The notes: generated by a model not told the origin, from the letters alone. DNA of 64,000 nt from an uncultured Enterobacteriaceae bacterium (GCA_964447285.1 CAYURO010000001.1:1010-65009), one strand, 5' to 3'; positions 6,093-26,199 are shown, counted from the stretch's first letter. Numbers and translations are program-made.

Positions 6093-8538
6093 CTACTTTC
6101 GCTTCTTGCCGCCCGCGGACTTGGCTGTGGGTTCGGGCTTGGGCTTGTCTGTCGGTGCGCTTTTGGCCGGTGCGCCCTTGATCGGTCGTCGTCGCCTCAG
6201 CCACGCCCAAGCCAGCAGCGCCAGCAGGGTCAACCCCGACGCCGCACCACCCGCCCGCAGCCCAGGAGCGCGAAACACCCACGTGATCTGGTGGGTTCCC
6301 GCCGGCACCGCGACCGCCCGGAACAGACCGTCTGCCCTCGCCGCCGTTGCCGCGCGCCCGTCGACCTGCACGGTCCAGCCGCTCTCCATCGCGTCTCGCA
6401 CCACCACCACGGCCGCCAGGGTCGTCGTCGCCTTCAGCACCAGCCGGTCCGGTGTCTCCTCCACCACCTCGACCGTCCCCGTCGCCCCCGGGGTGTGCGG
6501 CAGTACGCGGTCCAGCAGCACCGTGTCGGCCGGCAGGTCGGCCAGCTGCTCGACTGCGGCGCTGTTGTCCGGCACCACCCGCACCTGTCCCGCCACAAGA
6601 AACCTGGGCATGGGCGCGGGGTTACGCCGCAGCACGCGGCCGCTGTCGAACTTCTGGACCTCGGGCCACTCGGCGAATGCCAGCCGCGCCTGTCCGTCAT
6701 CTGCGTCCAGCAGCAGGTGGGACACCGCCAGCCGATCGAGCCATGGAGACGGCCGTCGCACCTGAAACATCACGCCGTACTCGGTCGCAGCCCGTCCGGA
6801 CAGGCGGTTGCCGTAAGCGTTGCTGAGCAGCGGCACCACCGGCTCGTACGCCCCGGCTCCGGCCAGTCCCGCCGTCGCTGGCCAGTTCGCCTGTCGCAGG
6901 GCCGCCGCCGTGGCCAGTCGATGGTCGCGGCCGACCGCTTGGGCCAGCGCCTGACGCTCCTGAACGCTCCACCGCACCCGGGCTTCCGCCTGTTGGTGGT
7001 CGGGCTGCACGTGCATCGCAGCGAACCGCACGACCTCAAAGCCCAGCACGCCGACAAGTCCCCAAGAGATCGCCTTGTGCCATCCGGGCTTGCCCCAGGC
7101 CAAGAGTGCCGCCGCCAGCGCACCCACTGCCGTGACGAGTCCCAACCTGGCGTCTGCAGCGAAACCATCCAACCCCGCACCAGCGCTGCGTTTCGCGTCC
7201 AGCCCCGCCGCCCACCAGCCGCCGTCCGGGCGCAGCGTCGCGCCCAGCCCCAGCAGCCCCAACGCCAGCCCGCCCAGCACGGCAAAGCCCAGCAAGGTCT
7301 TGGTCTTGGACCTTCCCGCGTCTTTTGGTGCGACCGTCAACGCCTCGGCCGCCAACAGGGCCAGCAGTGCCACGGCGGGCAGCAGCCAGCGCCCGGGCAC
7401 GCGGAAGCTGCCAAGGCCCGGGATCAAATCCACCAGCGTGGGCAGCAGCAGGCCGTCCTGACCGACCGACAGGAGCAGACACGCGACAGCCCCTGCCGTC
7501 AGAATCGCGCTACGCAGGCCGCCCCGCACCGCGCCCAGCGCCGCAAGTGCCAGCCCCGCTGCGCCGACAAATGCGACCGACTCGTGGTACGCAAAGCCCC
7601 CCAGCCGCGGTCCCGTGCCGCCCCAACCGGCAGGAGCCACGGCCGTCAGCAGCGTGCGTGCCGGCGTTCCGTAGGCCAGCGCGATCTGCAGCGGCGTCTC
7701 CAGCGACCGGTTGCTGTGCCCGGCGAATCGCCAGGTCGGCCACCACTGCACCGCCGACAGCGCCAAGCCCACCGCACCCAGCACGCCCAGCGCCAACAGC
7801 GCCACCACCGACGCGGGCCAATGCTTCAGACGCGACGGTGGGTTGCCCTTGTCCCCGGCGCCCGGGACGTCGCCCGGGTCCAGCACCAGAGCAAGCAGCA
7901 CGAAGGCCAAGCCACACAGGCCCAAAAAGGTCGCCTGCGGGTGGCCGGCCAGCACCTGAAGGCCCAGCGCTGCACCGCTCCACACCGCTGGCTGCAGTCG
8001 CCTCTGCCGCACGGCGTGCAGTGCAAGTCCCCAGATCCACGGCGTCCAAGCCCACGCTTCGACCAAGCTCACGTGACCCGCGAACACATGGCCCCACGTC
8101 GGCCCGCCGCCCACCAGCAGTGCCGCGACCGCCAGCCCTGCCGGCCACGACGCCCGCGATCCCGCCCACACCCCGGCCAAGTAGACCGCGCCGACGCCGA
8201 GCCACAACAGGTGCAGCGCCATCAGGATTTCCGACGCGTGCCACGGTGACAGGAACGTGGCGAGCAGGTTGGGCGGATAGGCCAGCCCCAGCTGCATTGT
8301 CGCGTGCAGGGGCAGGCCCCCCAGCTCTCCCGGATTCCAGGTTGACCAGCGGCCGTCGCGCAGCCAGTCGTGCAGCAGCTTGCGCAGCGGCTCTTGATAG
8401 CTGAAGAGATCCGTCCCGTTGCCGATGTAGACCAGCGCATCCCACGCCACCGCAAGCAGCGGCGCGGCCAAGGCCAACACCCACACCCCGGAGCCCAAGC
8501 GTGTCAGCCAGCGGTTCGTCTGGGTCACGGCGCTGCCT
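6093..8538 (-). CDS. Large polytopic membrane protein of YfhO-like architecture (putative glycosyl-transfer or envelope biogenesis protein).
   Basis: ORF 6093..8585. A probable GTG start at about 8538 gives VTQTNRWLTRLGS. There are at least 12 predicted TM helices, then a soluble domain, a final TM segment and a basic tail (RRRRPIKG...KKRK). The family assignment comes from architecture only. Confidence 0.45.
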
Positions 8539-9736
8539 CCACCTCTGGCTGCGTCTCGCCCTGCACGATCTGGGCAAGCGCACACAGCCTCGCCAGCGAG
8601 TCGGGCTCGTCTGCCGTACGCGGCACCGCCACCAGGGGCAGGCCAGGGCCCAGCCGGGTACGCAGCTGCTCGACATGTGCCTGGTCCTGCTCTGCCAGCC
8701 GCCCCATCTCTCTGGCCACTTGCCCCAGCCGCTGCGCCAGCCGATGCGCCGCCCGCTTGTCGCCCATCAGGACCTCAGACCCGAGTCGCTGCAACAGGGC
8801 CTCCAGACCCGCCTCCAGCTCCTCGCCAGCCTGACACGGTCCCGGGGCAAACGGCGCGACGCGATTGATGATCCAGCTGCCGACGCGCATGCCGCTCTCG
8901 TCCAGCCGGTCGCGAAGGTACAGCGCCTGCTGCGTGCTGGCGTCGTCGCAGCTACTGACCAGCACGAATGCGGTGTCGGGGCTCTGCAACAGCTGCTGGG
9001 CATCGCGCGCGCGCTGCACGAAGCCGTCAAAAGTCGATGACAGATAACCAAAGAACTCCAGAAGGTTGCCGAACATCTCGGCGCCGGTGAAGCGGGTCAG
9101 TCCGCGCATGACCACCGACCCCGTGCGGAACATCCCCCTCTGCAACCGCGACGTCGGACGCAGCAACAGCCGGAAGGCGTTCGAGTCGAACAGGTCGACC
9201 AGCCGCGAGGGCGCATCCAGAAAATCGAGGGCGTGGGCCGACGGCGGCGTGTCCAGCACCACCAGGTCGTGGTCGCCCGAGGTCGCCGCCTCGTACAACC
9301 TCTCAAGTGCCATGTACTCTTGCGATCCGGCCAGCGCCGTCGACGCTTGCCGATAGTAGGGGTGGTGCAGGATGCGGTCGCGGCTCTCTGCGTCGGGGGC
9401 GTAGCGGGTCACCACGCGGTCGAATGTGCTCTTCACGTCCAGCATTGCCGCGTCCAGCGGCTGGGAAACCCTGCAACCTTGCTCCGCAAATACTTGGACC
9501 GGGATCCGCTGCACCAACTCGTCGAACGCCTGAAGCCCCAGCGCGTTCGCCAGCCGGCGCGCCGGATCGACCGTCAACACCAGCGGTCGTCGTCCCATGC
9601 GCGCCGCCGCGACTCCCAGGGCCGCCGCCAGCGTCGTCTTGCCAACGCCACCGGCACCGACGCAGACCAGGACCTTGCGGGTCGCGATCAGGGACGCCAG
9701 CGGCTCGGGGGGCGAATTCGATGACGGAACGGGCAT
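8525..9736 (-). CDS. ArsA/GET3-family P-loop ATPase (anion-transporting ATPase-like).
   Basis: ORF 8525..9736. It has a deviant Walker A (VLVCVGAGGVGKTTLAAALG) and DTPP (Walker B-like). Its 3' end overlaps the start region of the YfhO-like gene. Confidence 0.7.
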   Translation of the reverse strand: MPVPSSNSPPEPLASLIATRKVLVCVGAGGVGKTTLAAALGVAAARMGRRPLVLTVDPARRLANALGLQAFDELVQRIPVQVFAEQGCRVSQPLDAAMLDVKSTFDRVVTRYAPDAESRDRILHHPYYRQASTALAGSQEYMALERLYEAATSGDHDLVVLDTPPSAHALDFLDAPSRLVDLFDSNAFRLLLRPTSRLQRGMFRTGSVVMRGLTRFTGAEMFGNLLEFFGYLSSTFDGFVQRARDAQQLLQSPDTAFVLVSSCDDASTQQALYLRDRLDESGMRVGSWIINRVAPFAPGPCQAGEELEAGLEALLQRLGSEVLMGDKRAAHRLAQRLGQVAREMGRLAEQDQAHVEQLRTRLGPGLPLVAVPRTADEPDSLARLCALAQIVQGETQPEVEAAP

Positions 9737-10471: not shown

Positions 10472-11026
10472 TCAGTCGAACAGCCAGCTGACACCGAACT
10501 GCGCCGAAAAGCCGGTTCGTTGCAGGTTGTTGACAGCCCTCACGCCGATGCCCAGCTGCAAGTGCGGCCGCTCGTAAGTCCGGACTTGGTAGCGCATCCC
10601 GCCTTCCAGAAAGAAGCCGAGTGTGTCGAACACGCTGGTGCCTGCGTACATCAACTGGGTGCCGAACTCGCCATAGCCGCGCAGGGGAGCCCACGCATCC
10701 TGGGCCGACTCACCGCCCACCGTCGCCGCCACGGTGACCCACGGCCCTTGGCCCGTCGCGCCCAGCTGCGCCTCGCCGCCGAAGTACAAGGCGCGCGTGT
10801 GCCGTCTGGCGGTACCGCGCACAAACGGCCCCAGTGGATGGCCCTCGACAGGCAGGACGGCCACACCCAAGGCAAGTTCGCGCCCCAGCACATCGTTTCT
10901 GTCGTAATCCAGTGCCAGCACTTCACCCGCCGACGCCATCAGCAGCAACGCCGCGGTCAGGCTCAGCAAGTACGGCACCGGTCGTTGGTGGGGCAGCAGC
11001 ATGGGGCCGCGGTGTAGCGCAGGCAC
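10472..11026 (-). CDS. Small secreted protein, probably an outer-membrane beta-barrel (hypothetical).
   Basis: ORF 10472..11026. It has a signal peptide (LLSLTAALLLMASA) and alternating hydrophobic beta-strand patterning through the C-terminus (QFGVSWLFD). Confidence 0.4.
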   Translation of the reverse strand: MPALHRGPMLLPHQRPVPYLLSLTAALLLMASAGEVLALDYDRNDVLGRELALGVAVLPVEGHPLGPFVRGTARRHTRALYFGGEAQLGATGQGPWVTVAATVGGESAQDAWAPLRGYGEFGTQLMYAGTSVFDTLGFFLEGGMRYQVRTYERPHLQLGIGVRAVNNLQRTGFSAQFGVSWLFD

Positions 11027-11044
11027 CGGGGGCTGGCAAGCCGA

Positions 11045-13579
11045 TCACCTTGGCGGGCGGGGCTGAGACGACCACGAGCGCCCCTCCTGTTGCGCGGTGA
11101 CGCCCTTGCGACCGACCACCACCTCGACCCAGCCCTCTGTCGTCGGCCAAAGCGGGATGCCATAGCGGGCGTAGCGGTCGCTCACTTCCCGATGCGGAAA
11201 GGGCAGTTGCCCCCATGGGCGGGCGCCGACCACCGCCAGTCCCGGACGCACACCCTCCAGCAGCGGCGGCGTGCTCGAGGTGCGGCTGCCGTGGTGGGGT
11301 ACCTTCAGCACATCGACCGGTCGCAGCACCCGCGCCTTGGCCAGCGCCGCCTCCGCCGGAGCCTCAATGTCGCCTGCCAGCAGCACCCGACCGCCTGCCG
11401 TCGAGACCTCCAGCACCAGCGAATTATCGTTGAAGTCATGCGCGGCCGAGTAGGGTGCGTCCATGGGAAACGGCCACAGAACGCGGACTTGCACCCCACC
11501 CCAGCTGAAGGTCCGTTGGGATCCCGGCCCCGCAAAGTCACGCCACCGTGTCCCCTGCCGTGTCAATTCCGCGACCAACGCTTGGTGTTCCGCGCCACCG
11601 GGGACCTGCCCGTTCCACCACAGCTCGCCCACCGGCAGGACCCGCGCCACCGCCAGCAGACCGTTCTCGTGGTCCGGATGCCCGTGGGTCAGCACCATGC
11701 GGTCGATTCGCCGGATGCCGTGGTGTTTCAGGAACGGCACCACCGCCTGCGCCCCGATGCGCCCGTCGTCTGCCACCTCACCGCCCCCATCGACCAGCAG
11801 GTTTGACCCGTCCGGCAGCTCGACCAGCGTGCAGTCGCCATGCCCCACGTCCAGGAACGACAGTCGCACCGTACCTTGCGGAACCCCCTGCAACCACGCA
11901 GATCCCGCCCACGTCGCTGCCGTCGCAACCAACGCCACCGCCGCCACAGCGCGCCACCGCCCCCCATGCCACCATGCCGCGACGACCGCCGGCACCGTCA
12001 ATCCGGCCACCAGCGCCAGAGTCCCACTCGCTGACCACACCGGCCACCACGCCTTGGGAGACGCCACCAGCTTCTCCAAAGGCCACAGCGCCGCCTCACA
12101 CGCTGGCGCAATCCACGCCCGCACCGGACCCAGCCACGACCCCAACGCGGACAGGACCATCGCGGCAAGCGCCACCGGCAGCAGAAACCCCGCGTAGGGC
12201 ACGGCAAACCCGTTCGCCAGCGGTCCAACCAGCGGCAGCGCGCCAAAGACGGTCAGGGTCGCAGGAGCCGTCGACGACGATGGCGCAACGCAAGTCTTCA
12301 GGAACACGACGGTGTGATGCTTCAGCCGCGTTCGCCAGCCACCGTCTTCGGGCTGGTCCTGCCCCCAACCCGCCCATGCAAGGCCCAGCACGCCCAAGAT
12401 CGACAGCAGCAGCCCCACATCCGCCACCGCCACCGGGTCGACCAGCATCAGCACGACCGCCGCCAACCCGAGTGACTCGCCCAGCCCCGGCTGCCGTCCG
12501 CTCGCCCGCCCCAACACCAGCGCCGTCGCCATCACGGCCGCCCGCAGCGTGCTCGGCGCCGCCCCGGTCAGCAGCGCGTAGCCCCAGGTCGCCATCAGGC
12601 TCGGCACCGCTAGCAGCCGTTCACGCGGAAACCGGCGAAACAGCCCTCGCGCAAATCGCGTCGCCAGGAACTTCAACAACTCCCGCACCATCCACACGAC
12701 CAGCGCCAGGTGGCTGCCCGACACCGCCATCACATGGGCCGTCCCCGTCGCCCGCAGCCACACTTGCAGCGGCTCGTCGACGGCCCCCTTGTCCCCCAGC
12801 GCAAGGGCGGCAAACGTCTGGCCAGCGCGCCCCGGCACCGTGGTCGTCAGCGCGTCGCTCAGGTGCCTGCGCCACCGTCCGATGACGTGCAGCACGCCCC
12901 CCAGAGGATTCCGTGCCCATCCAAACGGTTCCGTCAGGGGCCGGTCCTCGAAGCTGATCTCGCCGACCCGCCGCACGCGCACGCCGGCCACCAAGCCTGC
13001 GCGCGTCCACGACTCTCGCGCATCCCAAGCTCCGGGGTTGCGAAAAGCGGGGGGGGGTGTCGTAAACGCCCGCACCCTCAAGCGATCTCCCAACTGCACC
13101 CGGACGTCGCGCCCGACGACATCGACGCGCACAAGGCCGCTCCTCGCTTCGCACGCCAACCGCCGCCGCTCAGGCTCCGGCAGGCAGCGCGCCGTCCATT
13201 GTGCGGTGAAGCGATGACCGACCGGACTCCACTCCGGCTCAGACGCCACCTCCAGGAGCTGCAGCGGCGCTTCCAAACCCGGCCTTGGCAGGTCCAGGGG
13301 TGGCAGCGGCCCCGGGGTCACGGCCTGCTCGGCCCGCACAGCCGCCACCAGCCCCAACGCGATCCAGGCGGCCAGCAGCAGCGGCCCGCGCAACCGCCGT
13401 CGCACCCCCCAAGTCCCCATAAGTACGCACGTTGATGCCAGCACCACGGTCGTCGCCGTCGGCAGGCCGCCGTGCAGCCCCACGCCTGCACCTGCCGTCA
13501 CCGCGACCGCTGCCGGCGCCCACACCCGCCCTTGCCAGCTCCACGCCATGCCCACCCGCCCCGGGGCGAAGAGGGCCAC
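11045..13579 (-). CDS. comEC: ComEC/Rec2-family DNA internalization channel protein (DUF4131 + competence domain + C-terminal metallo-beta-lactamase fold).
   Basis: ORF 11045..13579, 844 aa, polytopic. The C-terminal MBL domain carries the HxHxDH motif (RMVLTHGHPDHENG) and FLDVGHGDCTLVELPDGSNLLVDGG. The N-terminal start is uncertain. Confidence 0.8.
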   Translation of the reverse strand: MALFAPGRVGMAWSWQGRVWAPAAVAVTAGAGVGLHGGLPTATTVVLASTCVLMGTWGVRRRLRGPLLLAAWIALGLVAAVRAEQAVTPGPLPPLDLPRPGLEAPLQLLEVASEPEWSPVGHRFTAQWTARCLPEPERRRLACEARSGLVRVDVVGRDVRVQLGDRLRVRAFTTPPPAFRNPGAWDARESWTRAGLVAGVRVRRVGEISFEDRPLTEPFGWARNPLGGVLHVIGRWRRHLSDALTTTVPGRAGQTFAALALGDKGAVDEPLQVWLRATGTAHVMAVSGSHLALVVWMVRELLKFLATRFARGLFRRFPRERLLAVPSLMATWGYALLTGAAPSTLRAAVMATALVLGRASGRQPGLGESLGLAAVVLMLVDPVAVADVGLLLSILGVLGLAWAGWGQDQPEDGGWRTRLKHHTVVFLKTCVAPSSSTAPATLTVFGALPLVGPLANGFAVPYAGFLLPVALAAMVLSALGSWLGPVRAWIAPACEAALWPLEKLVASPKAWWPVWSASGTLALVAGLTVPAVVAAWWHGGRWRAVAAVALVATAATWAGSAWLQGVPQGTVRLSFLDVGHGDCTLVELPDGSNLLVDGGGEVADDGRIGAQAVVPFLKHHGIRRIDRMVLTHGHPDHENGLLAVARVLPVGELWWNGQVPGGAEHQALVAELTRQGTRWRDFAGPGSQRTFSWGGVQVRVLWPFPMDAPYSAAHDFNDNSLVLEVSTAGGRVLLAGDIEAPAEAALAKARVLRPVDVLKVPHHGSRTSSTPPLLEGVRPGLAVVGARPWGQLPFPHREVSDRYARYGIPLWPTTEGWVEVVVGRKGVTAQQEGRSWSSQPRPPR

Positions 13580-13610
13580 CGGTACGGGATGATCGCTACC
13601 ACGAGCAAAA

Positions 13611-13649
13611 CGCCGCGCGGCGCCGTGACGAATTCGTCAGGCGCCGCGC
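13611..13649. terminator. GC-rich imperfect inverted repeat (CGCCGCGCGGCGCC gtgACGAATTCGTcag GCGCCGCGC) with T-rich flanks, lying between the OMP stop and the comEC start.
   Basis: Read directly from the sequence. The central ACGAATTCGT is a perfect palindrome. A TTTTGG tract follows on the plus strand and TTTTG follows on the minus strand. Confidence 0.3.
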
Positions 13650-13687
13650 AAGCTTTCGTATTCTATTCGGTTTTGGCTAGGCTGGAG

Positions 13688-15388
13688 CTAGAATCGGTAC
13701 TGCGTCGACACGAGCACTTCCTGCTCATTGGTCTTCGGACCCACCGTCTCGCCCGAGCTGTTCAGGGCGCCAGCCACCTCGCGGAAGCGGTACAGCAGCG
13801 ACACGACGCCGATGTTGCGCCAGACGTACACGTGGGCGGCGGCGCGATACTGGTACTCGTCCAGCTGCTTGCGCAAATCGGTCTCGAGCTTGTCCGGACC
13901 GGCCAGTCGCTTTCCGGCCACATACGCGCCGTAGTCGGCCGCCAGCAGCAGCACCTTGGGGATCGCCAGCACGCCGACCTGAACGTTGTAGGCAAGCTGG
14001 TTGGCTCCGGGGATGATCGACTCCTGCTCGAAGTCGAGCGCGTACTTGCCGTACACCTCAGCCGTCGCAACAACCCGCTTGTAGCGGAAGACATTGTTCA
14101 CGTTGAAGGCGGGATAGCGCTCCTGCGCCCGCTGGTCGTACTTGGCGCCCAGCGTCAGGCCCCACGTCAGCGGCACGCTGGTGTAGAGGAACGGCGAGTC
14201 GAAGCGGCTGACGGTGCCGAACACATTCAGGCCGACCTGACCGCCGACGCCGTAGGTGTAATTCTCGTTGCCGTAAGTGAAGTAGCGACCGCCGACGTTG
14301 CCGGTCGACCGACCTGAGCCGCCCGCAGCAAACGCCCGGTACACCAGCTTGCCGGAGTGGCCAAGCGGACCCGACACTTCGACCGCGGCGCCGTTGCCCT
14401 GCTCGAATGCGTTGTAGAGGTAGTACGCGGGTTCGACCAGCAGTTGCTTCGACGTCGACACGATCAAGCCGCTGGAGAGGCCGCCGCCGCCGCTGTTCAG
14501 GTTCAGGAAGTGGCCGCTGGTGCCCAAGGGAACTTGGAACATCGCAAACGTCAGGCGCGGGGTGCGCTCTGCCCGCATGCTGACGAGGTAGAACGAGTTG
14601 GGGATCTGCAGGATCGGGCCAAACGACCGCAACTGCAGCTTGGTGAAGCGGGTGTCGGCCTGCTTCTTCTCCATGTCGTATGCGCCTTCGATGCCGGCGA
14701 CGACCGAGAACCGCATGCCGGGGTTGCCGCGGCAGACGGTCACTTCCGGGTCGAAACGGCAGCCAAAGTCGGCACAGTCGACCTTGCCGTCGTTGTCGTT
14801 GTCGACGCCGTCGGAGCACACTTCGTCGTTGCGCTCGCCGTCCTTGTCGCTGCCCTTGCCGATCAGGTCCTCCACGGACATGCCGTCGCGCAGCTCAGGC
14901 ACGTCGTCCGGCACGCTGTTCGCACCACCCGCGCCACCGCCGCTCTCAAGTGGCCCTTGCCACGAGCCACGGCAAGGTTTGGCCTGGTCGCAGTCGCTGT
15001 CGTCGCAGTCGACGAAGCCGTCGCCGTCGTTGTCGAACCAGTCGCCGCACTTCGCGTCGTCGTTCTCGGGGCCCGATCCGACCTTGCACAGGACGTCGCC
15101 TCTGCAGTCGGCGTCCGCGCAGTCGACCATGCCGTCGCCGTCGTCGTCCTTGCGATCGCCGCAATTCGTCTCTTTGGCACCGGAATTCGCCGCCGGAGCG
15201 GTCGCCGCCGGCGTCTCGGCCGCCGCCGCAGGAGCAACAACCGCCGCAGGAGCAACAGCCGCCGCAGGAGCAACAGCCGCCGCGGGCGCAGGAGCACCCG
15301 GCGCCGCGGGCTGACCCCACGCCGTCGTCACGAACGAACTTCCCGCCACCAGGGCTGCCATCGAAAACAGGGCTGCCAATCTCATCAT
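13688..15388 (-). CDS. Outer-membrane beta-barrel protein with an N-terminal region carrying 3 Cys-bracketed DxDxDG (EF-hand / thrombospondin-type-3-like) calcium-binding-type repeats.
   Basis: ORF 13688..15388. It has a signal peptide and an Ala/Pro-rich linker. The repeats are CGDRKDDDGDGMVDCADADC, CGDWFDNDGDGFVDCDDSDC and CSDGVDNDNDGKVDCADFGC. The C-terminal ~380 aa show amphipathic beta-strand alternation and end in the OMP-type terminal motif ...VSTQYRF. Confidence 0.6.
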   Translation of the reverse strand: MMRLAALFSMAALVAGSSFVTTAWGQPAAPGAPAPAAAVAPAAAVAPAAVVAPAAAAETPAATAPAANSGAKETNCGDRKDDDGDGMVDCADADCRGDVLCKVGSGPENDDAKCGDWFDNDGDGFVDCDDSDCDQAKPCRGSWQGPLESGGGAGGANSVPDDVPELRDGMSVEDLIGKGSDKDGERNDEVCSDGVDNDNDGKVDCADFGCRFDPEVTVCRGNPGMRFSVVAGIEGAYDMEKKQADTRFTKLQLRSFGPILQIPNSFYLVSMRAERTPRLTFAMFQVPLGTSGHFLNLNSGGGGLSSGLIVSTSKQLLVEPAYYLYNAFEQGNGAAVEVSGPLGHSGKLVYRAFAAGGSGRSTGNVGGRYFTYGNENYTYGVGGQVGLNVFGTVSRFDSPFLYTSVPLTWGLTLGAKYDQRAQERYPAFNVNNVFRYKRVVATAEVYGKYALDFEQESIIPGANQLAYNVQVGVLAIPKVLLLAADYGAYVAGKRLAGPDKLETDLRKQLDEYQYRAAAHVYVWRNIGVVSLLYRFREVAGALNSSGETVGPKTNEQEVLVSTQYRF

Positions 15389-15410
15389 GACCTCGTTGGC
15401 CCGGGTGGGG

Positions 15411-16686
15411 CTAGAACTCGCAGATGCGCTTGCGGGGTTTGCCGTTCTTGTCCTTCAGGCAGACGTCCACGGCGGGGTTCCAGTTGCAATCCCAGTCGTC
15501 GCAGTCGGCATACCCGTCCTTGTCGTTGTCGGCGCCGTCGCTGCACTTGGCGTTGCCGTCGCCGAGGCTCTCCTGACAAGCCTGCTTGACCGAGATGTCG
15601 GTCGAGTTGCGGCAGGAGTAGTCCTCGCAGTCCGTATAGCCGTTGCCGTCGTTGTCGATGTCGTCGCTGCAGCGGTCGAACGTGACCTCGAGGACCGACG
15701 CGCAGTACTTGACCACCGCCGAGTCGTCGGCCTGCGAGCACGAGTAGTCGCCGCAGTCCATGAAGCCGTTGCCATCGTTGTCGACGCCGTCCGAGCACTT
15801 CACGATCGTGTTCTCGCCGATGGAGATGCAGTACTCGATCGCCTCTTGGGTGCCCTTGGAACTACAGGAGAAGTCGTTGCAGTCGATGTAGCCGTTCTTG
15901 TCGTTGTCCAGGCCGTCGCTGCACAGGGCCACGGTGTCTTCGGCCAGAGCGGGCGCGTTGGCGCAGTACTCGGCGATGGCGGAGTCCTTGGACTTGCTGC
16001 ACGAGAAGTCCAAGCAATCGATGTACTTGTTGCCGTCGTTGTCGATGCCGTCCTGGCACTTGGGCAGCGTGTCTTCAGCTTCGGCGACCGGCAGGCACGC
16101 AGCGACCGTGTCGCACCCGGAGTCGGTGCAGTCGGTTTTGCCGTCGCCGTCGTTGTCCTTGCCGTCCGTGCACGCGGCCGAGTCGACGTCCGAATCCTCG
16201 GTGCACACCGTCACGAACATGCCCTTGCTACAGCCGTAGTCCTTGCAGTCCGTGTAGCCGTTGCCGTCGTTGTCCTTGCCGTCACCGCACAATTCGTTCG
16301 TGAACTCGCGCAGGCAGCAGGCCTCGGCAAGGTTCTGGCACTTGCGGTCACCGCAATCGAACTGACCGTCGTCGTCGTTGTCCTGAAAGTCGGCGCACAG
16401 CTCGACGGTATTCTCGACCTCGAAGGAAGGCACGGCCGGCACGTACTCGCCGCAGAACGTCGACAGCAGCAGGCAATCGACGTCATCGCAGTCGATCATG
16501 CCGTCCTGATCGTTGTCGATGCCGTCGGCACAGGTCTGGTTGTCGGCCTCGTAGCCGAGCACGGGCAAGACGCCGTTCTTGGTCACAGGCACGTCGTAGC
16601 AGCCGGACATCGCGACCGCGAGCAGGCCAGCAACGCAGGCCACACCGACGGTCGGGCGAGTAGGCAGGGTTCGAGAGGACTGCATG
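15411..16686 (-). CDS. Lipoprotein built from 9 tandem Cys-bracketed DxDxDG repeats (putative Ca-binding extracellular scaffold).
   Basis: ORF 15411..16850, trimmed to the ATG at 16686 (MQSSRTLPTRPTVGVACVAGLLAVAMSGC). The nine repeats match the consensus C-x-D-G-x-D-N-D-x-[DN]-G-[YF]-x-D-C-x-D-[YF]-[SG]-C, for example CADGIDNDQDGMIDCDDVDC and CSDGVDNDGNGFMDCGDYSC. Confidence 0.65.
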
Positions 16687-16726
16687 CGCTCCTCAGATGG
16701 GCGGAAGGTCCGCTCGGCGCGACGAA

Positions 16727-17506
16727 TCAATCGTGCAAGCACGTCGCCGCTCCCTGGCCGTAGCGGCGGGAGAACGGCACGTACAGGTGACAGGCCCCTG
16801 CTTCGTGGCAGACCCACTGGCACGTCTTGTAGATGTCCAGATGGATCCACTTCTCGGAGTGGCCATCCTCGGTCGAGACCGTGCGGTTGTAGGTCGTGCC
16901 GTCGTAGCCCTCGTCATTCGAGTGCGCGGACGTCAGCACAAACTTCGGCACACCCTTGGCCCACATGCCGCGCCTCTCGGCGATCGCGGCCTTCTGCGCG
17001 ACGATGTACCGATCGGGCGAAGGCAGCTTGGTCACCGTCATCGCGTGCGCCAAGCCCTTGCGGATCTGGTCCACGGCGAGGTCCGGGCAGTCCCACAGGA
17101 TGCGGCCGTAGCCGTCGCGGTTCAGGTCTGAGGTGCAACGCCAAGAGCCTCGTCGGGCGTTCAGCGTCGCCATCTTGGCGTTGACGTACAGTTCGGACGC
17201 CTTCCAGTCGCCCCACTTGTGCACGTTGCCGAAGCTTTCCAGTGTGTTGTAGCCGGAAAGCCGGGCCTTGGTACCGGCGTACGGGCCCGCCAGAACCGTA
17301 AAGCTGTCGCCGTCGTTGAACCAGACGGGCGACAGCACACCGTTCAGCAGCACGCGAGAAGCAGGCCTGGCCCAGCCTTCGGAGGCGGCCGCCAGCAGCG
17401 CAACGATGCCGACCAGCAGGCCCACAGCAACGCGCACGCTGATCGGCGACCGAAGGCGAATTGTGTGGAGCGAAGGATCAGCCGAGTGGGCCAGGAAGCC
17501 GGGCAT
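16727..17506 (-). CDS. Membrane-anchored staphylococcal-nuclease (SNase / thermonuclease)-like secreted nuclease.
   Basis: ORF 16727..17506. It has an N-terminal TM/signal anchor (VAVGLLVGIVALLAAA) and SNase-like motifs: FNDGDSFTV (DGDT-like), ARLSGYNTLE (RLxGIDxPE-like), DGYGRILWDC (YGR), ERRGMW. Confidence 0.65.
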   Translation of the reverse strand: MPGFLAHSADPSLHTIRLRSPISVRVAVGLLVGIVALLAAASEGWARPASRVLLNGVLSPVWFNDGDSFTVLAGPYAGTKARLSGYNTLESFGNVHKWGDWKASELYVNAKMATLNARRGSWRCTSDLNRDGYGRILWDCPDLAVDQIRKGLAHAMTVTKLPSPDRYIVAQKAAIAERRGMWAKGVPKFVLTSAHSNDEGYDGTTYNRTVSTEDGHSEKWIHLDIYKTCQWVCHEAGACHLYVPFSRRYGQGAATCLHD

Positions 17507-17576
17507 GGGAAAGCCCCTTGGTCACGTGCAGCGGAGGTGGCGGGGGGAGCCGAGCGCGCGTGCGAGCGGACTCAGA

Positions 17577-18173
17577 CTACGGAGCAGCCGAAGGAGCAAG
17601 ACCCTCGTCGCCACGACCGTCGACCATGATCGCGAAGTTCGGCTCGCGATACTCGTTCCGACCGCAAGTGGCCATCACCATCTTGATGACCTGGAAGGGA
17701 ACGGTGCGGTCCGACTGAATGATGACCTTCCGGCTCTCCCGAACCTTCTGGGGGTTCCTGGGGTTCTGCTGGAATTTCCAAGACGTCTTCAGCACCTCAG
17801 CCAGCGGCTTGATGTCCCAGCTGGGGTACTTGACCTCGTTGACGTCGCCCAGGCTCATGATGCGCTTGTTCTCAAACAGCATCTCGCCGAGGGTGCTGCC
17901 ATCGCCGCGGGTCAAGGCGACCATGGGCGCGCGCTCGAGTTCGGCCTTCGACGAGGCCTTGGGCATGGCGACGTTCGGATTGACCAGCATCAGCTCGCCG
18001 GCCGCGCTGAACGACTGGATCAGAAAGATGACGAGCATGATGAACAAGTCGATCATCGGCACGACATTCAACGTCGCGAAGATCGCCTTGGATCCGCCGG
18101 TCCTGACCGTCTTTTGGATGGTCTTGAGGGCAATGCCGTGACCGGCTCGTGATCCGGGGTGGTGGACAGCCAT
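17577..18173 (-). CDS. ExbD/TolR-family protein (H+-channel stator partner), paralog 2.
   Basis: ORF 17577..18173. It has a single TM segment with the conserved Asp (ATLNVVPMIDLFIMLVIFLI) and a periplasmic ExbD-like domain (KVIIQSDRTVPFQVIKMVMATCGRNEY). Confidence 0.75.
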   Translation of the reverse strand: MAVHHPGSRAGHGIALKTIQKTVRTGGSKAIFATLNVVPMIDLFIMLVIFLIQSFSAAGELMLVNPNVAMPKASSKAELERAPMVALTRGDGSTLGEMLFENKRIMSLGDVNEVKYPSWDIKPLAEVLKTSWKFQQNPRNPQKVRESRKVIIQSDRTVPFQVIKMVMATCGRNEYREPNFAIMVDGRGDEGLAPSAAP

Positions 18174-18244
18174 CTCGTTCCTCTGTCTAGGGCCCGCCGT
18201 TGGAGGCGGATCGGTTCGTCAGCGCCAGAAAGGGCCGCCAAGGG

Positions 18245-18853
18245 CTAGTTGAAGTCTGTGAACCCTTCGGCCTTCAGAAGGTTCTGATCGCCGACGGCAG
18301 GGTTTCTCAGGCAATTCTTCTTGGCCGCATCATCGATGCAGGAGCTGAGGATCGCGTCGAGGGTGCCGATCAAGTGCAGGTACTGCACCTTGTCTGACGC
18401 CACGACCATCACCTTGACCTTGTCGCCCAAGCCGGCCTCTTTCATGAAGCCTGCCAGAGTCTTCCGCAGTTCAGGGCGGTTGTACTTCTTGAATACTTCG
18501 ATCTGGCCCTGACAATTCGACGCCGTACCCTTGCCGCGGCAGAGCCGGAACTCACCGTCGGTCGGGATGCGCTTGGGCTGGGCCAGCTCAGGCTTGGTCT
18601 CGAGATTGAACAGGTTGACCAGATAGCCGGAGGGCGTGATGGCCACGTTGATCTTCGGTTCCTTCTTGGGCTGCTCCTTCGGAGGAGTCTTGCTTGCCTT
18701 GGGAAGGGCCTGGTCGACGTCGACGCGGGACATCTGCGTCCACACCGCCGAGATCAGCAGGAAGCAGATCGTGCACGCCAGCAGATCGATGAAGGGCACG
18801 ACGTTCAGTGTCGCGTCGGCTACGCCGCCTTTTCCTGAAGAACCACCACCCAT
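18245..18853 (-). CDS. ExbD/TolR-family protein, paralog 1.
   Basis: ORF 18245..18889; the probable start is the in-frame Met of MGGGSSGKGG (about 18853). It has a TM segment with the conserved Asp (TLNVVPFIDLLACTICFLLI) and the C-terminal motif KVMVVASDKVQYLHLIGTLD. Confidence 0.75.
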   Translation of the reverse strand: MGGGSSGKGGVADATLNVVPFIDLLACTICFLLISAVWTQMSRVDVDQALPKASKTPPKEQPKKEPKINVAITPSGYLVNLFNLETKPELAQPKRIPTDGEFRLCRGKGTASNCQGQIEVFKKYNRPELRKTLAGFMKEAGLGDKVKVMVVASDKVQYLHLIGTLDAILSSCIDDAAKKNCLRNPAVGDQNLLKAEGFTDFN

Positions 18854-18974
18854 CGTCTCTCTCCTGTCCGTTCGTCGAGCGTTGATCACCGCCCCGCGGA
18901 AGCCGGGACGGTCTCACGGAGCGCGCCGGCCGCTGCCGGTCAGCCCCAACCGGGCGAGTACTGCTGCTCTGCCT

Positions 18975-19022
18975 GCGGCCCCGGAGCCATCCCGTATCTC
19001 AGGGATGACTCCGGGCCGCGGG
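18975..19022. other. Long imperfect hairpin (GCGGCCCCGGAGCCATCCC gtatctca GGGATGACTCCGGGCCGC) in the exbB-exbD intercistronic region.
   Basis: Read directly from the sequence. The stem is about 18 bp with one bulge. No U-run follows it on the coding (minus) strand, so it is more likely an mRNA processing or stability element than a terminator. Confidence 0.3.
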
Positions 19023-19098
19023 GCACGTCGAGCAGACGAGTCGGTCAGACACCCGCTCCCTCGTCAGGCCGTAACCCGCCGTGGAGCTACGCACCGCA

Positions 19099-19764
19099 TC
19101 ACGCGGCGGCGTCATCCTTGATGTCGCCCATCTTGTTGCGGTTGGCGACGATCAGGTTGAGCACGCGAACCGTGCCCTCGTCGATGTCCGCCTTGATTTC
19201 CTTGGCCTTGGAGGTCAGGACCGCAAACGCGAGCACGCCGATGATACCGGTCGCAAGACCGAACGCCGTGCAGTTCATGGCCTCCGAGATGCCCTGCGAG
19301 AGCAGGGTGGAGCGCTGCGACGGATCGACGTCCGGACGGCCGATGGCCGCGAACGTATTGATCAGACCCGAGATCGTGCCGAGCAGACCAGCCAGGGTGG
19401 CCGTGTTGCCGAGCAAGTTCAGGTAGTCGACGCGCTTCTCGATCTGCGGGATCTCGCGCAGATAGGCCTCGTCCATGGCCGCTTGGACTTCTTCGTCCGA
19501 GCGCTTCACCTTGAGGACGCCAGCGTGAACGATGCGAGCCAGCGGGTACTGGTAGGTCGAGCAGACCTTCAGCACGCGGTTCAGGTCGCCCTTGAGGATG
19601 GGCACTTGCAGGAGCTTGATGAACTCCTCCTTCTTCACGCTCGACCGGATGTAGAGCACGAAGATGCGCTCGAACATGATGGCCAGAATGAAGACGAGGT
19701 GCCCGAGGATGGGCCACATTCCCCAGCCGCCTTCTTCAAAAATCTCTGCGATGGAGTGAAACAT
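19099..19764 (-). CDS. MotA/TolQ/ExbB-family proton channel.
   Basis: ORF 19099..19764. It has three TM helices (WGMWPILGHLVFILAIMFERIFVL; LLGNTATLAGLLGTISGLINTFAAI; AFGLATGIIGVLAFAVL) and a cytoplasmic loop typical of TolQ/ExbB. Confidence 0.85.
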   Translation of the reverse strand: MFHSIAEIFEEGGWGMWPILGHLVFILAIMFERIFVLYIRSSVKKEEFIKLLQVPILKGDLNRVLKVCSTYQYPLARIVHAGVLKVKRSDEEVQAAMDEAYLREIPQIEKRVDYLNLLGNTATLAGLLGTISGLINTFAAIGRPDVDPSQRSTLLSQGISEAMNCTAFGLATGIIGVLAFAVLTSKAKEIKADIDEGTVRVLNLIVANRNKMGDIKDDAAA

Positions 19765-19802
19765 CGGTCGTCTGCTCCGTGAAGATGCTGTCTGCTCGAT
19801 AC

Positions 19803-19818
19803 CCGCACAGGTGTGCGG
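19803..19818. promoter_or_regulatory. Perfect 16-bp palindrome CCGCACAGGTGTGCGG (7-bp arms, 2-bp spacer) 39-54 bp upstream of the exbB start; candidate operator.
   Basis: Read directly from the sequence. It lies in the 573-bp divergent intergenic region between exbB (minus) and the gene at 20338 (plus). Confidence 0.25.
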
Positions 19819-20337
19819 CTGACTATGGACACCGCCCTGCTGCCCCCAGCTCTGGGGCCCCTACTTTCTGTCCGCCGACTTGTTGTCCGCCTCGCTTGGG
19901 TCCCGCTGCCATCGGTGTGAACCGGGTGCCGTGGGATTCTGTCGGGGAGGACTTCAGGGTACGAAACGAACGGAAGATAGGAGAATGCCCTTCGGTGTGT
20001 TCGGGGACCCTCCCCGTGTCGGCGTCGGATGCATGCTGTCATGCCGACAAGCGTTGCTGCGCGCCCTGACGGACGAGCCGAACGCCGCCGTATTTAGCAC
20101 CCCGCTTTCGGAGGGGTCAAGTCTCCGCGTCGTCATGACCGTGAAAGTTTGGGACGGACGTTCGGTTGGGCGGGGTTGAGGGACGTAGCGACTGAAAACG
20201 GAAGCGAAAACAAGAAGGTGGTCGGGGGCGCTGGTGAGGGCGCCAAAGGCCTGACGGGTGGGGCGAATTGACGCAGGGTCCCGGCGTGGTGTAGGCGACA
20301 CCCCAACCGCAGCCCCACGGGCCGCACAGGACGTGTC

Positions 20338-21036
20338 ATGCGCAGAAGCGACATCGAAGAAATTGAGGCCATGTTGGACGACGACCCGCGTGAGGCGCTG
20401 AGCTTGGCGAGTCGCATCGTTGATGAGTCGCCTGACGACCCGGACGGGTGGGCCTGGCGTGCAGAGGCGCAGATCGCCCTGGGTCAGGCTGAGAACGCCC
20501 TGAAGTCGCTGGCGGAGTACGTGCAGCGCGACCCGGAGTGGATCGAGGCGTATACGATGCGTGCGGTGCTGCTGACAGAGCTCGCGCGGTTCAGCGACGC
20601 CCACGTCGAAGTCGAGGTGGCTCGCGCGATCGATAGCGAGGACCCTCGGTTGCAGCGCGCCGAAGCCGTGTGGCACGAGCTGCAGGGGCACTTCCCCGAG
20701 GCCGACAAGCTGTACGCGCTTGCGGCGGAGGGCGACCCGGGGCTGTATCCGGCGCCTCCCCGGTTCGACCGTCCGCGGGCCCAGGCGGCGATTCTGAAGG
20801 TGCTGCGCGAGATCGCCAAGGACGGCCTGAAGTTGCAGCCCGTGTTTGAGGAAGTACCCGTGCCCGCACCGACCAAGGGTGGCAAGCTGCTGACGCGGGC
20901 GCTGGACCTGCGGGACAAGAGCACCGTCGTGGTCTATCTGCGCAACCTGGAACGCGAACTGGACGATGAGTCGCAGATCGAGGACTTGGCCGAGGTGTTC
21001 GAGGACTGTCTGGCGGAGCTGGTCGAGGCGAACTGA
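20338..21036 (+). CDS. Acidic cytoplasmic hypothetical protein with a TPR-like N-terminal half.
   Basis: ORF 20338..21036. Its amino-acid composition is realistic and acidic. The overlapping 383-aa minus-strand ORF (19954..21105) has an R/L/Q-rich shadow composition and was rejected. Confidence 0.5.
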   Translation: MRRSDIEEIEAMLDDDPREALSLASRIVDESPDDPDGWAWRAEAQIALGQAENALKSLAEYVQRDPEWIEAYTMRAVLLTELARFSDAHVEVEVARAIDSEDPRLQRAEAVWHELQGHFPEADKLYALAAEGDPGLYPAPPRFDRPRAQAAILKVLREIAKDGLKLQPVFEEVPVPAPTKGGKLLTRALDLRDKSTVVVYLRNLERELDDESQIEDLAEVFEDCLAELVEAN

Positions 21037-22238: not shown

Positions 22239-23845
<1,607 letters not shown>

Positions 23846-23889
23846 TGGGCGTTGGTCTCTTGGCTCGGCGAATGCCGAGTGAAGGGGGG

Positions 23890-24576
23890 TCAGGTTGGGG
23901 GCGGCTCGTCGGCCGCGAGGGGGTCCAACCGCGCGTCGCGCAAGAACTCCTGCACGCACTCGTGGTGGCGCAGGTCCGTGGGCAACGGCGCTTGAGTTGC
24001 AAACAGCGATTCCATTGCCGCGACGGTGGGGTCCAGTGCATCGTTGATGAAGACGTGCCATGGCATAGACGAAGCGACCAGCCCCTCCAACTCGCGACGA
24101 GCCGTCCGCAGGCGACGGCGCACGGTCGCGTCCGTCTCGGTTCCGCGTTTCAGCAGTCGCTCGACCAGCACGGGCCAGCTGGGCGGCAAAAGGAAGGCGA
24201 GCCGGGTGCGATCGGGCAACTGAAGGTACAGGTTCAGCGCGCCGACGATGTCGATGTCGAACAGGGCGTCGCGGCCTTGTTCGCGCATCCGGTCGATCTC
24301 GTGCAGCGACGTGCCGTAGAAATGGCCGTGGACCTCCGCCCACTCCGCAAAGCCACCGGCGTCACGCAGCTGTTCGAAGGCCGACCGGTCAACGAACCAG
24401 TAGTCAACTCCAGTGGTTTCGGTCGTCCGGATGGGACGAGTGGTGTGGCTGACGCTGAAGCCGCGCCGCGCGGGCTGCCGGTCGATCAGCCGGTGCGCGA
24501 TCGTGGTCTTGCCCGCGCCTGCGGGGCCGACAAGCACGATGAGGCGGCCGCCCTCTTCCCTATCCGGAGCCGTCAT
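23890..24576 (-). CDS. gmk: Guanylate kinase.
   Basis: ORF 23890..24576. It has a P-loop GPAGAGKTT, SVSHTTRPIR (guanylate kinase signature) and the C-terminal lid region typical of Gmk. Confidence 0.8.
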   Translation of the reverse strand: MTAPDREEGGRLIVLVGPAGAGKTTIAHRLIDRQPARRGFSVSHTTRPIRTTETTGVDYWFVDRSAFEQLRDAGGFAEWAEVHGHFYGTSLHEIDRMREQGRDALFDIDIVGALNLYLQLPDRTRLAFLLPPSWPVLVERLLKRGTETDATVRRRLRTARRELEGLVASSMPWHVFINDALDPTVAAMESLFATQAPLPTDLRHHECVQEFLRDARLDPLAADEPPPT

Positions 24577-25592: not shown

Positions 25593-25728
25593 CGGTCTCC
25601 TGATGCGGGCCGCTGGCCCGACGAAACGGTGCACGGTAGCATGCGGTTCGATCGCTTCCCGATCAAGGCGGCAGCACCGCGGAATCCACCGCGCCGACCT
25701 GATTCCCCACTGCAGCGGGTGTCCTTCC

Positions 25729-26199
25729 ATGCCCCGGATCCTCCTCGCGCTGGGCAGCAACGTTGCCGACTCCGCCGCCTCGGTGCGCTTGGGCTGGGCC
25801 GCTGCGTGTCAGGAACTCGGACTGCGCGACGCGAAGTTGAGCGAAGTCGTGCAATCGCCCCCCGCCGAGGGGGCGACAGGGGGGCCGTTTGCCAACGCGG
25901 TGGGGCAAGGGCGGACGGAACAATCTCCGCAGCTCGTGTTGGCGGCCTGTCAGCGGATTGAGCAAGCGTTTGGCCGAGATCGCACCCGCGAGGGCTACCA
26001 CGGTGCGCGGCCCTTGGACCTAGACCTGCTTGACTGGGACGGCCGGTGCATCGACCTGCCGCTCTTGCAGCTGCCACATCCTCGGCTTTCGCTGCGGCGT
26101 TTCGTGCTGGAACCCCTTGCGCAGGTCGCACCCGATTTCGTAGATGCCCGCTCCGGCCGCACGGTCGCTGAACTGCTCGCCACCCTGCCCGATGTCTGA
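25729..26199 (+). CDS. folK: 2-amino-4-hydroxy-6-hydroxymethyldihydropteridine pyrophosphokinase (HPPK).
   Basis: ORF 25603..26199, trimmed to the ATG at 25729 (MPRILLALGSNV). HPPK motifs present: ALGSN, RPLDLDLL, LPHPRL, RRFVLEPL. Confidence 0.8.
   Translation: MPRILLALGSNVADSAASVRLGWAAACQELGLRDAKLSEVVQSPPAEGATGGPFANAVGQGRTEQSPQLVLAACQRIEQAFGRDRTREGYHGARPLDLDLLDWDGRCIDLPLLQLPHPRLSLRRFVLEPLAQVAPDFVDARSGRTVAELLATLPDV

Follow-up and report, generated by a model that had tools for sequence, protein, structure and literature searches.

What kind of module is the acidic, cysteine-bracketed repeat that two neighbouring genes share in a stretch of 64,000 nucleotides from an uncultured Enterobacteriaceae bacterium (GCA_964447285.1 CAYURO010000001.1:1010-65009)? 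This stretch, which we call the window throughout, is 67% GC, and the two open reading frames (ORFs) in question lie side by side on its minus strand. One encodes a lipoprotein, the other a protein that ends in a beta-barrel. A first-pass annotation, made from the sequence, had placed the pair at 13688-16686 and had read it as a modular, calcium-dependent scaffold outside the cell. The location was right, save that the right end lies one base too far and gives stops in translation; the true end is 16685. Our results put the repeat in a catalogued family and, through profile matches in both directions, relate its units to the calcium-binding C-rich domain of the teneurins. They also show that the pair is part of a conserved three-gene cassette, whose third member, absent from the first-pass annotation, encodes a predicted secreted nuclease. 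What might three such proteins be doing together?

The repeat unit and its relatives

A regular expression for the core of the repeat, C-x-D-x2-D-[ND]-D-x-[DN]-[GK]-x3-D-C-x-D-x2-C, finds exactly three copies in the barrel protein and nine in the lipoprotein. The NCBIfam model NF033662 (acid_disulf_rpt, "acidic double-disulfide repeat-containing protein") gives the same counts, which are also those first proposed. It scores 224.1 bits on the lipoprotein (E 6.8e-68, nine stretches) and 85.2 bits on the barrel protein (E 1.8e-24, three stretches), against a curated cutoff of 41 bits. By these scores both proteins belong to NF033662; the module is catalogued already, and the motif itself is not new. 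The family name implies four cysteines in each acidic unit of about 32 residues, and all 12 units have them. The complete unit reads C-x13-C-x4-C-x5-11-C, the fourth cysteine falling 5-11 residues beyond the third, so the motif drawn earlier had captured the Cys-bracketed acidic core and had stopped one cysteine short, at three per unit. The definition of NF033662 attaches no function or structure to the repeat and does not extend to the porin fusion and the nuclease cassette described below. In a literature collection that is incomplete, we found no paper mentioning the name or accession of the family.

Within the window the unit is confined to these two genes. When all six frames of the 64 kb were scanned for C-x13-C-x4-C with five or more Asp or Asn, the 12 units came up and nothing else. 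When the 12 are aligned, the four cysteines (C5, C19, C24 and C30) and five aspartates are invariant, and a glutamate stands six residues upstream of the first cysteine in nine of them, or in ten if aspartate is counted. Successive units start 36-45 residues apart in the lipoprotein and 38 and 77 residues apart in the barrel protein; a spacing of about 35-45 residues, as first described, therefore holds everywhere apart from the one long gap in the barrel protein.

In order to find a structural relative, a profile of the 12 units was compared with all PDB sequences. It matched the teneurin C-rich domain 7PLP, a 49-residue construct of human teneurin-4, at E 3.8e-8, together with full-length teneurin-4, teneurin-3, teneurin-2 and fly Ten-m. 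Beyond the teneurins, the search gave weak EF-hand loops and nothing else of note. The reverse test agrees, in that NF033662 matches the teneurin-4 core at E 1.4e-10 and the fly core at E 2.6e-8. It also matches the diatom glucosidase motif used in the comparison of Tucker et al., at E 1.9e-9. At the level of sequence profiles, these reciprocal matches show that the units are homologous to the calcium-binding teneurin C-rich domain. Common to both are a C-x13-C-x4-C-x5-C skeleton and a ladder of Asp and Asn residues. In teneurins, which are animal receptors, the domain is a single six-Cys copy with three disulfides that has the EGF repeats on one side and the TTR domain on the other.

The C-rich domain of teneurin-4, about 38 residues long, binds three Ca2+ with octahedral geometry (PMC9058538). 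Its ligands in 7PLP are E835, D840, D843, N844, D845, D847, D851, D854 and D856, along with three backbone carbonyls; Ca I and Ca II have the coordination of thrombospondin type 3 repeats and Ca III that of LDL-receptor class A repeats (PMC9058538). The six cysteines pair 1-3, 2-5 and 4-6, the domain as a whole is unlike any other known fold, and calcium stabilises the teneurin architecture (PMC9058538).

How much of this chemistry do the bacterial units keep? Ligand conservation was counted over 1,485 units from 240 orthologues (363 units from 120 orthologues of the barrel protein and 1,122 units from 120 of the lipoprotein). The equivalents of D843, D845, D851 and D854 are Asp in 96-100% of the bacterial units. 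That of D840 is Asp in 83-93% and Asn in the rest, that of D847 is Asp or Asn in every unit, and that of N844 is Asn in about 80%. Taken together, six acidic ligand positions and the asparagine are kept at 78-100%, and the four cysteines and five aspartates are invariant across more than 1,400 orthologous units. Two calcium sites thus appear fully furnished in nearly every unit, while the third, to which we return below, looks variable. The four bacterial cysteines are the equivalents of teneurin cysteines 1, 2, 3 and 5, and the 4-6 pair is absent; from this mapping we predict two disulfides in each unit, C1-C3 and C2-C4.

Calcium binding by the units is strongly supported by these comparisons, as the first-pass annotation had supposed when it spoke of a calcium-binding-type module: the homologue 7PLP is loaded with calcium and most of its ligands are conserved. 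A characterised family with a non-calcium function had been named as the outcome that would count against that idea, and the opposite turned up, a characterised relative that binds calcium. The resemblance to thrombospondin type 3 and LDL-receptor class A repeats has a basis too, since the calcium sites of the teneurin-4 homologue are of these two types.

That resemblance is one of mechanism, not of family membership. All of these are small, disulfide-stapled units built around Ca2+ by Asp-rich, DxDxDG-like loops, but the number and spacing of cysteines in thrombospondin type 3 and LDL-receptor class A repeats are unlike those of the bacterial unit. The LDL-receptor pattern has six cysteines against four here, and Excalibur has Cys-Glu after the loop where the unit has Cys-x-Asp. 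Pfam gave no match at E <= 1 on the whole repeat proteins, and single units searched at E <= 10 (10 units) gave no TSP_3, TSP3_bac, Ldl_recept_a or Excalibur match (the models concerned are PF02412 and PF18884 for thrombospondin type 3, PF00057 for LDL-receptor class A and PF05901 for Excalibur). It had been said that the repeat resembles these families and matches none of them exactly, and indeed no Pfam model for any of the three, or for the EF-hand, was passed.

Two further candidates came closer and were rejected. Loop positions 1, 3, 5, 6, 9 and 12 fit the EF-hand pattern D-x-D-x-[DN]-G-x-x-D-x-x-D. These are the invariant positions of the unit, which accounts for EF-hand matches that stay below threshold (12-14 bits in units of the window, and in two homologues 28-29 bits where the cutoff is 30). 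The AlphaFold2 (AF2) model lacks the flanking helices of an EF-hand. The MopE-type motif PF11617 has the core C-x-D-G-x-D-N-D-x-D-G-x-x-D in common with the unit, but its cysteines are placed differently. With a cutoff of 27 bits, it scored at best 14.0 (E 0.062), in one unit, and 14.9 in a homologue. The literature had itself tied the teneurin motif to a MopE-type motif of bacteria and algae, and the similarity was raised in 2012 and again in 2019 by way of MopE-like and diatom sequences. What appears to be undescribed is the reciprocal match between the bacterial four-Cys repeat and the calcium-bound teneurin domain, the fusion to a porin and the nuclease trio; our incomplete literature collection held no paper on the match to the teneurin structure, on the porin fusion or on the trio.

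The repeat is abundant. A profile search of 1.84 billion representative proteins gave 9,828 clusters (at 50% identity) at E <= 1e-3, of which 3,732 reached E <= 1e-10. The genomes concerned include Planctomycetota, Bdellovibrionota, Fibrobacterales, Bacteroidota, candidate phyla and archaeal metagenome-assembled genomes, and some of the proteins carry about 40 units or more. Among 43 larger array proteins we found fusions to the proprotein-convertase P domain, LTD, PPC, lectin and F5/8-C domains, a type IX secretion signal and a GH64 beta-1,3-glucanase, and lipoprotein-type N-termini are common in this set. One unrelated protein (P0386) joins 14 units to an Endonuclease I domain, PF04231. The GH64 fusion recalls the endo-1,3-beta-glucosidase of diatoms, the enzyme set beside teneurins by Tucker et al. 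(2012). In short, the module is a generic building block of proteins exported from the cytoplasm. A link to the bacterial teneurin-like toxins found no support, the YD-repeat signature being present in none of the 122 best repeat-array proteins.

Copy number differs between the two families. Of 120 barrel-protein orthologues, 117 have three units; in 120 of the lipoprotein the number runs from 6 to 13, with a mode of nine. It had been suggested that the repeats could promote recombination at the DNA level. The copies in the window are just 60-79% identical, so nothing points to recent or ongoing recombination, although the number of units does vary among lipoprotein orthologues.

The lipoprotein, the barrel protein and a predicted nuclease partner

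Both repeat genes have the marks of genuine genes. Their third-position GC content (GC3) is high, at 0.85-0.86, and Shine-Dalgarno sequences precede both start codons, GAGG 3 nt ahead of the barrel-gene ATG and GAGGAG 4 nt ahead of that of the lipoprotein gene. The barrel and lipoprotein families are 50-65% identical across the Polyangia. An exact-sequence look-up found neither repeat protein, with these start codons, in the collection searched.

Read from the N-terminus, the barrel protein has a signal peptide and an Ala/Pro linker, then two of its modules, a second and conserved linker, the third module and the barrel. Structural statements here and below rest on AF2 models. The model of this protein has a mean predicted local distance difference test (pLDDT) of 70, and over most of the barrel the values are 80-94. 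The model forms 16 strands, has a 35-residue loop between strands 5 and 6 with a helix at residues 322-328, and ends in YRF. Foldseek returned 219 PDB matches at E <= 1e-3. The best were the general porins VhChiP, Omp32, OmpU, OmpF/OmpC, PorB and OprP, with E 1e-10 to 1e-8 for VhChiP, Omp32, OmpU, OmpF and OprP. The modelled barrel thus shows a porin-like fold and agrees with the first-pass suggestion of an outer-membrane beta-barrel. With the general porins it shares the 16 strands, the long loop with a helix that joins strands 5 and 6, and the C-terminal Phe; Foldseek TM-scores reach 0.64 on the target, but sequence identity is just 8-14%. The tethering porin OmpM1 (8byt, 8bys) is also among the matches and is alike in carrying an extra N-terminal domain. 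That extension is an SLH domain in OmpM1 and the calcium-module array here.

The model bears directly on where the modules sit. In outer-membrane barrels with an even number of strands both termini are periplasmic. On a 16-stranded porin-like model the three N-terminal modules should therefore face the periplasm and not the outside of the cell, which runs counter to the extracellular scaffold proposed at first. In the linker before the third module, G177, D181, G184, E185 and R186 are invariant in 40 homologues, and this VEDLIGKGxDKDGERND segment could be a docking site for a partner. The Ala/Pro linker is of another kind. Part of it is encoded by a tandem repeat with an 18-nt unit, the one tandem DNA repeat in the repeat genes that is close to perfect, and a homologue that is 94% identical (P0019) is 12 residues shorter, with its alignment gap at this linker. 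Length variation is thus seen there and not in the calcium modules.

The lipoprotein begins with a signal peptide and the lipobox VAMSG/C29, with Tyr at position +2. A lipobox-like motif is present in 76 of 120 homologues, and none has Lys at +2. In Myxococcus, Lys at +2 is the signal for retention in the inner membrane. The lipoprotein is probably anchored in the outer membrane. Its mature form consists almost entirely of the nine modules and has a net charge of -63. Two cysteines, Cys124 and Cys422, fall outside the scheme of four per unit. The first makes a CC dipeptide after unit 2, as is the case in 109 of 120 homologues, and the second corresponds to a cysteine within the final eight residues in 115 of 120. 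Together they may form a long-range or intermolecular disulfide.

The third gene lies 41 nt upstream of the lipoprotein gene, and its product has a signal peptide. Close homologues are named "thermonuclease family protein" or "endonuclease YncB" by their sources, and two homologues (P0312 and P0361) pass the Pfam SNase model PF00565 with 30.0 and 26.1 bits (cutoff 21). A PDB search with the single sequence found nothing. A 16-sequence profile gave weak thermonuclease matches (E 0.02, with an hhalign probability of 46%), and because these were weak a structure model and a fold search were made. The model, built with 35 homologues, has a pLDDT of 90.7, and in Foldseek every one of its ten best PDB matches is SNase or SND1 (E 4e-4 to 8.5e-3, probability 1.00). 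On this modelled structure, the partner gene is shown to encode an SNase-like fold. A likeness of its C-terminal 75 residues to Kelch was judged spurious: it involved designed proteins only and one short GYDG segment, and no stretch was significant alone.

SNase is a Ca2+-dependent enzyme whose catalytic residues are R35, E43 and R87 and whose calcium ligands are D21, D40 and T41. In a pairwise alignment D19, D21, R35, D40, T41, E43, Y85 and R87 of SNase fall on D65, D67, R82, N87, T88, E90, Y133 and R135 of the partner, all invariant in the 35 homologues except T88. The partner differs from SNase in the Asn that replaces D40 and in an added C-terminal domain with four invariant cysteines. Between the second and third of these, most homologues insert some 60-100 residues that look helical by composition; the window protein and that of L002 have no such insert (the loci compared were L001, L003, L005-L017 and L025).

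Is the association of the three genes more than local? The window proteins were searched by tblastn against 20 loci with a full-length barrel homologue, of which three end too near to tell. Among the 17 Polyangia loci with enough upstream sequence, 16 have the order nuclease-lipoprotein-barrel, often with overlapping stop and start codons between the nuclease gene and the pair; in the exception, L013, the sequence upstream of the lipoprotein match is only about 50 nt long. The lineages represented include Polyangiaceae, Sandaracinus, Nannocystaceae and unclassified Myxococcota, homologues being known from the Haliangium and Nannocystis lineages too, and in L081 and L082 the trio recurs with overlapping or tight gene junctions between unrelated flanks. 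The three families are also of similar size, with 679 matches for the barrel protein, 688 for the lipoprotein and 602 for the nuclease. The three genes form a conserved cassette, of which the pair described first is a part. Our incomplete literature collection yielded no described myxobacterial system that combines a nuclease with the outer membrane.

The cassette in its neighbourhood

The features of the locus are collected in Table 1. Upstream of the trio are an ExbB gene and two ExbD genes and downstream is ComEC, all on the same strand and separated by gaps of 22-209 nt. A consensus scan for promoters and terminators over 10900-20400 did no better than on shuffled sequence, and no TonB-family match was found among the neighbours scanned.

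Table 1. Features of the cassette and its surroundings in the window, in order of falling coordinate
Feature	Coordinates	Strand	Remarks
Thioredoxin-like lipoprotein gene	24573-25760	-	Rcas_1661 family; weak DsbC/DsbG-like matches; 8 kb from the cassette
Glutamate-tRNA ligase gene	22239-24041	-	
TPR gene	20338-21036	+	divergent; beyond the ExbB/ExbD genes
ExbB	19099..19764	-	Pfam/NCBIfam; upstream of the cassette
ExbD	18245..18889	-	214 aa, unusually long; Pfam/NCBIfam
ExbD	17577..18173	-	198 aa, unusually long; Pfam/NCBIfam
Secreted thermonuclease-fold gene (predicted)	16727..17506	-	259 aa, C-terminal four-Cys domain; synteny, AF2, Foldseek
Lipoprotein gene	15411..16685	-	424 aa; nine predicted Ca-module units; 688 homologues
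Signal peptide and lipobox	16599..16685	-	aa 1-29; read from the sequence
Lipoprotein unit 1	16452..16532	-	aa 52-78
Lipoprotein unit 2	16317..16397	-	aa 97-123; followed by extra Cys124 (CC dipeptide)
Lipoprotein unit 3	16203..16289	-	aa 133-161
Lipoprotein unit 4	16095..16172	-	aa 172-197
Lipoprotein unit 5	15963..16058	-	aa 210-241
Lipoprotein unit 6	15828..15923	-	aa 255-286
Lipoprotein unit 7	15702..15797	-	aa 297-328
Lipoprotein unit 8	15576..15671	-	aa 339-370
Lipoprotein unit 9	15459..15545	-	aa 381-409
Basic C-terminal tail of the lipoprotein	15414..15458	-	contains conserved Cys422 (Cys in homologues)
Barrel-protein gene	13688..15388	-	566 aa; ORF, GC3, Shine-Dalgarno, NF033662, AF2 model, Foldseek, 679 homologues
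Barrel signal peptide	15314..15388	-	aa 1-25, ending TTAWG/QP; read from the sequence; modelled helix 3-18
Ala/Pro-rich low-complexity linker	15179..15313	-	aa 26-70; pLDDT <50
18-nt tandem repeat in the Ala/Pro linker	15201-15310		5 copies, 69-100% identical; encodes AAVAPAAAVAPAAVVAP, aa 27-63
Barrel unit 1	15086..15163	-	aa 76-101, CGDRKDDDGDGMVDCADADCRGDVLC
Barrel unit 2	14972..15049	-	aa 114-139
Conserved linker P-E-L...VEDLIGKGxDKDGERND between units 2 and 3	14819..14899	-	aa 164-190; low pLDDT
Barrel unit 3	14732..14818	-	aa 191-219; ends six residues before the first strand
Porin-like beta-barrel domain (modelled)	13691..14713	-	aa 226-566; AF2 16 strands, Foldseek
ComEC	11045..13579	-	full-length; DUF4131, Competence and metallo-beta-lactamase domains; 108 nt downstream of the barrel gene
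ArsA/ParA-type ATPase gene	8525-9736	-	downstream of ComEC
Large membrane protein gene	6093-8585	-	weak YfhO-like C-terminus; downstream of ComEC

The ExbB gene is TolQ-like and the two ExbD genes are TolR-like; the Agl gliding motor of myxobacteria likewise consists of one MotA-like and two TolR-like components. An ArsA-like gene lies near the cassette in L001 and L003 as it does in the window. The thioredoxin-like lipoprotein could have a bearing on how disulfides form in the envelope. In L081 (positions 1-2856; OW818691.1, a 9.29-Mb genome) the surroundings are unrelated to those of the window. About 3.6 kb upstream of the cassette is a gene for a 1,627-residue protein that has both MopE-type motifs and PQQ-like beta-propellers, and two giant proteins with cadherin/Big_9 repeats are encoded just downstream.

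What the cassette may do

Our preferred explanation, towards which we lean modestly, is that disulfide-locked calcium modules scaffold a nuclease-porin complex in the cell envelope. Each unit would fold around two to three Ca2+ through the Asp/Asn ladder at C1+2, +5, +6, +7, +9, +13 and +16, and two disulfides would lock the fold; we infer this much with good support from the teneurin comparison. Units stapled by calcium and disulfides would fold only outside the cytoplasm, in the oxidising envelope, and arrays of them would make stiff, calcium-dependent rods or spacers and docking surfaces. Nine modules would form the body of the lipoprotein and three would hang from the periplasmic N-terminus of the porin-like channel. 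The modules would then assemble the lipoprotein, the porin and the Ca2+-dependent nuclease into a single complex on the inner side of the outer membrane, which would digest DNA or RNA, move the products through the porin and, in this clade, possibly hand them on to ComEC. That the lipoprotein array, the porin modules and the nuclease act as a single nucleic-acid-digesting complex is a tentative part of the proposal, one that we would sooner expect to fail than to hold.

Several observations weigh against this explanation. Gene order is the only tie between the three proteins. The ExbB/ExbD/ExbD and ComEC flanks recur only in L001 and L003, the closest loci, and this marks them as a clade-specific association and not as part of the conserved unit. 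Elsewhere the arrays are joined to many unrelated exported domains, as befits a generic module, and give no pointer to nucleic acids. No Pfam or NCBIfam model matches the nuclease itself (Pfam SNase PF00565 missed at E <= 0.01), no Pfam porin model (Porin_1, Porin_4, etc.) matches the barrel at E <= 1, and in the barrel-protein model pLDDT is 67-78 for units 1 and 2 and below 55 for unit 3. As to the chemistry, the equivalent of D856 is Asp in only 31-57% of units and that of E835 is displaced, with Glu at -6 in 67-77%, so that some units may hold two rather than three Ca2+. The bacterial units also have four cysteines where the teneurin domain has six, and they come in tandem arrays of three and nine, in a lipoprotein and a porin.

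Could the pair instead be a surface adhesin, as the first-pass annotation had it? The lipoprotein would then be exposed, the barrel protein would export its modules like an autotransporter, a calcium-dependent matrix would result and the nuclease would be a mere neighbour. The modules of teneurin, thrombospondin and the LDL receptor all serve interactions outside the cell, and in other bacteria the repeat is joined to domains of adhesins and secreted proteins, namely lectins, F5/8 type C, PPC and a type IX secretion signal. Type Va autotransporters carry a passenger at the N-terminus and a barrel at the C-terminus, and the barrel protein has a like layout. The barrel model conflicts with this, being a 16-strand porin with a loop-3-like insert and not a 12-strand autotransporter with a helix through the pore, and we have set the autotransporter-like reading aside on that ground. 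Moreover, unit 3 ends just six residues ahead of strand 1, and a mere neighbour would leave unexplained a nuclease gene that is joined to the pair in all but one of the informative loci. We regard a surface adhesin as improbable.

A tether would leave the modules in the periplasm. The porin with its modules and the long lipoprotein would be structural spacers that tie the outer membrane to a partner in the periplasm or the cell wall, and nucleic acids would not come into it. OmpM tethers through its SLH domain, and the Foldseek matches include the porin OmpM1, which has a periplasmic attachment domain at its N-terminus. Stabilisation by calcium, as in teneurins, would suit such a device, as would the fixed number of three units in the barrel protein and a lipoprotein whose most common length of nine units fits a tuned spacer. 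Against this, a range from 6 to 13 units is loose for a ruler, Pfam and NCBIfam detect no peptidoglycan-binding domain in either protein, and the obligate nuclease partner is again left without an explanation. We give a pure tether equally little credence.

Still less probable, in our judgement, is that the arrays are high-capacity stores or sensors for a cation such as copper, manganese or lanthanides in place of structural Ca2+. The density of carboxylates is very high, with 16.7% Asp and the strongly negative charge of the mature lipoprotein, and there is the sub-threshold likeness (E 0.03-0.06) to the motif of MopE, a name that implies copper and a likeness that the literature has noted too. 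But the MopE model scores 14-15 bits against its cutoff of 27, and the conserved ligands are all oxygen donors, arranged as in the calcium-occupied crystal. There is no conserved His or Met, and the cysteines come in even sets consistent with disulfides. Finally, a chance motif in acidic low-complexity sequence without specific function, such as a GC-rich region with repetitive Asp codons might produce, is refuted by the E-values of the family model, by the invariance of the cysteines and aspartates in the 12 units and their orthologues and by the lone occurrence in the window, to which the identity of both families across the Polyangia can be added; its probability is negligible.

Beyond the preferred explanation lies a bolder one, which we think unlikely. 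It would make the trio a new envelope machine of the Polyangia, with a calcium-gated periplasmic scaffold and a nuclease held under an anion-friendly porin to process foreign nucleic acid, ComEC receiving the products and ExbB/ExbD energising the whole. As a corollary, the C-rich domain of animal teneurins would descend from the bacterial module. An origin of that domain from a diatom enzyme was proposed in 2012; if the corollary were true, the source would be an abundant bacterial module and not the diatom enzyme.

What do the results mean for the families concerned? A large, unnamed bacterial repeat family gains a solved calcium-binding template, a predicted disulfide map and a set of ligands. 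The "novel fold" of the teneurin C-rich domain has abundant prokaryotic relatives, which bears on the origin of a piece of an animal neuronal receptor. For the Polyangia, the trio is a compact and widely conserved candidate system, and it could be a route by which predatory bacteria of soil and sediment degrade or take up extracellular nucleic acid.

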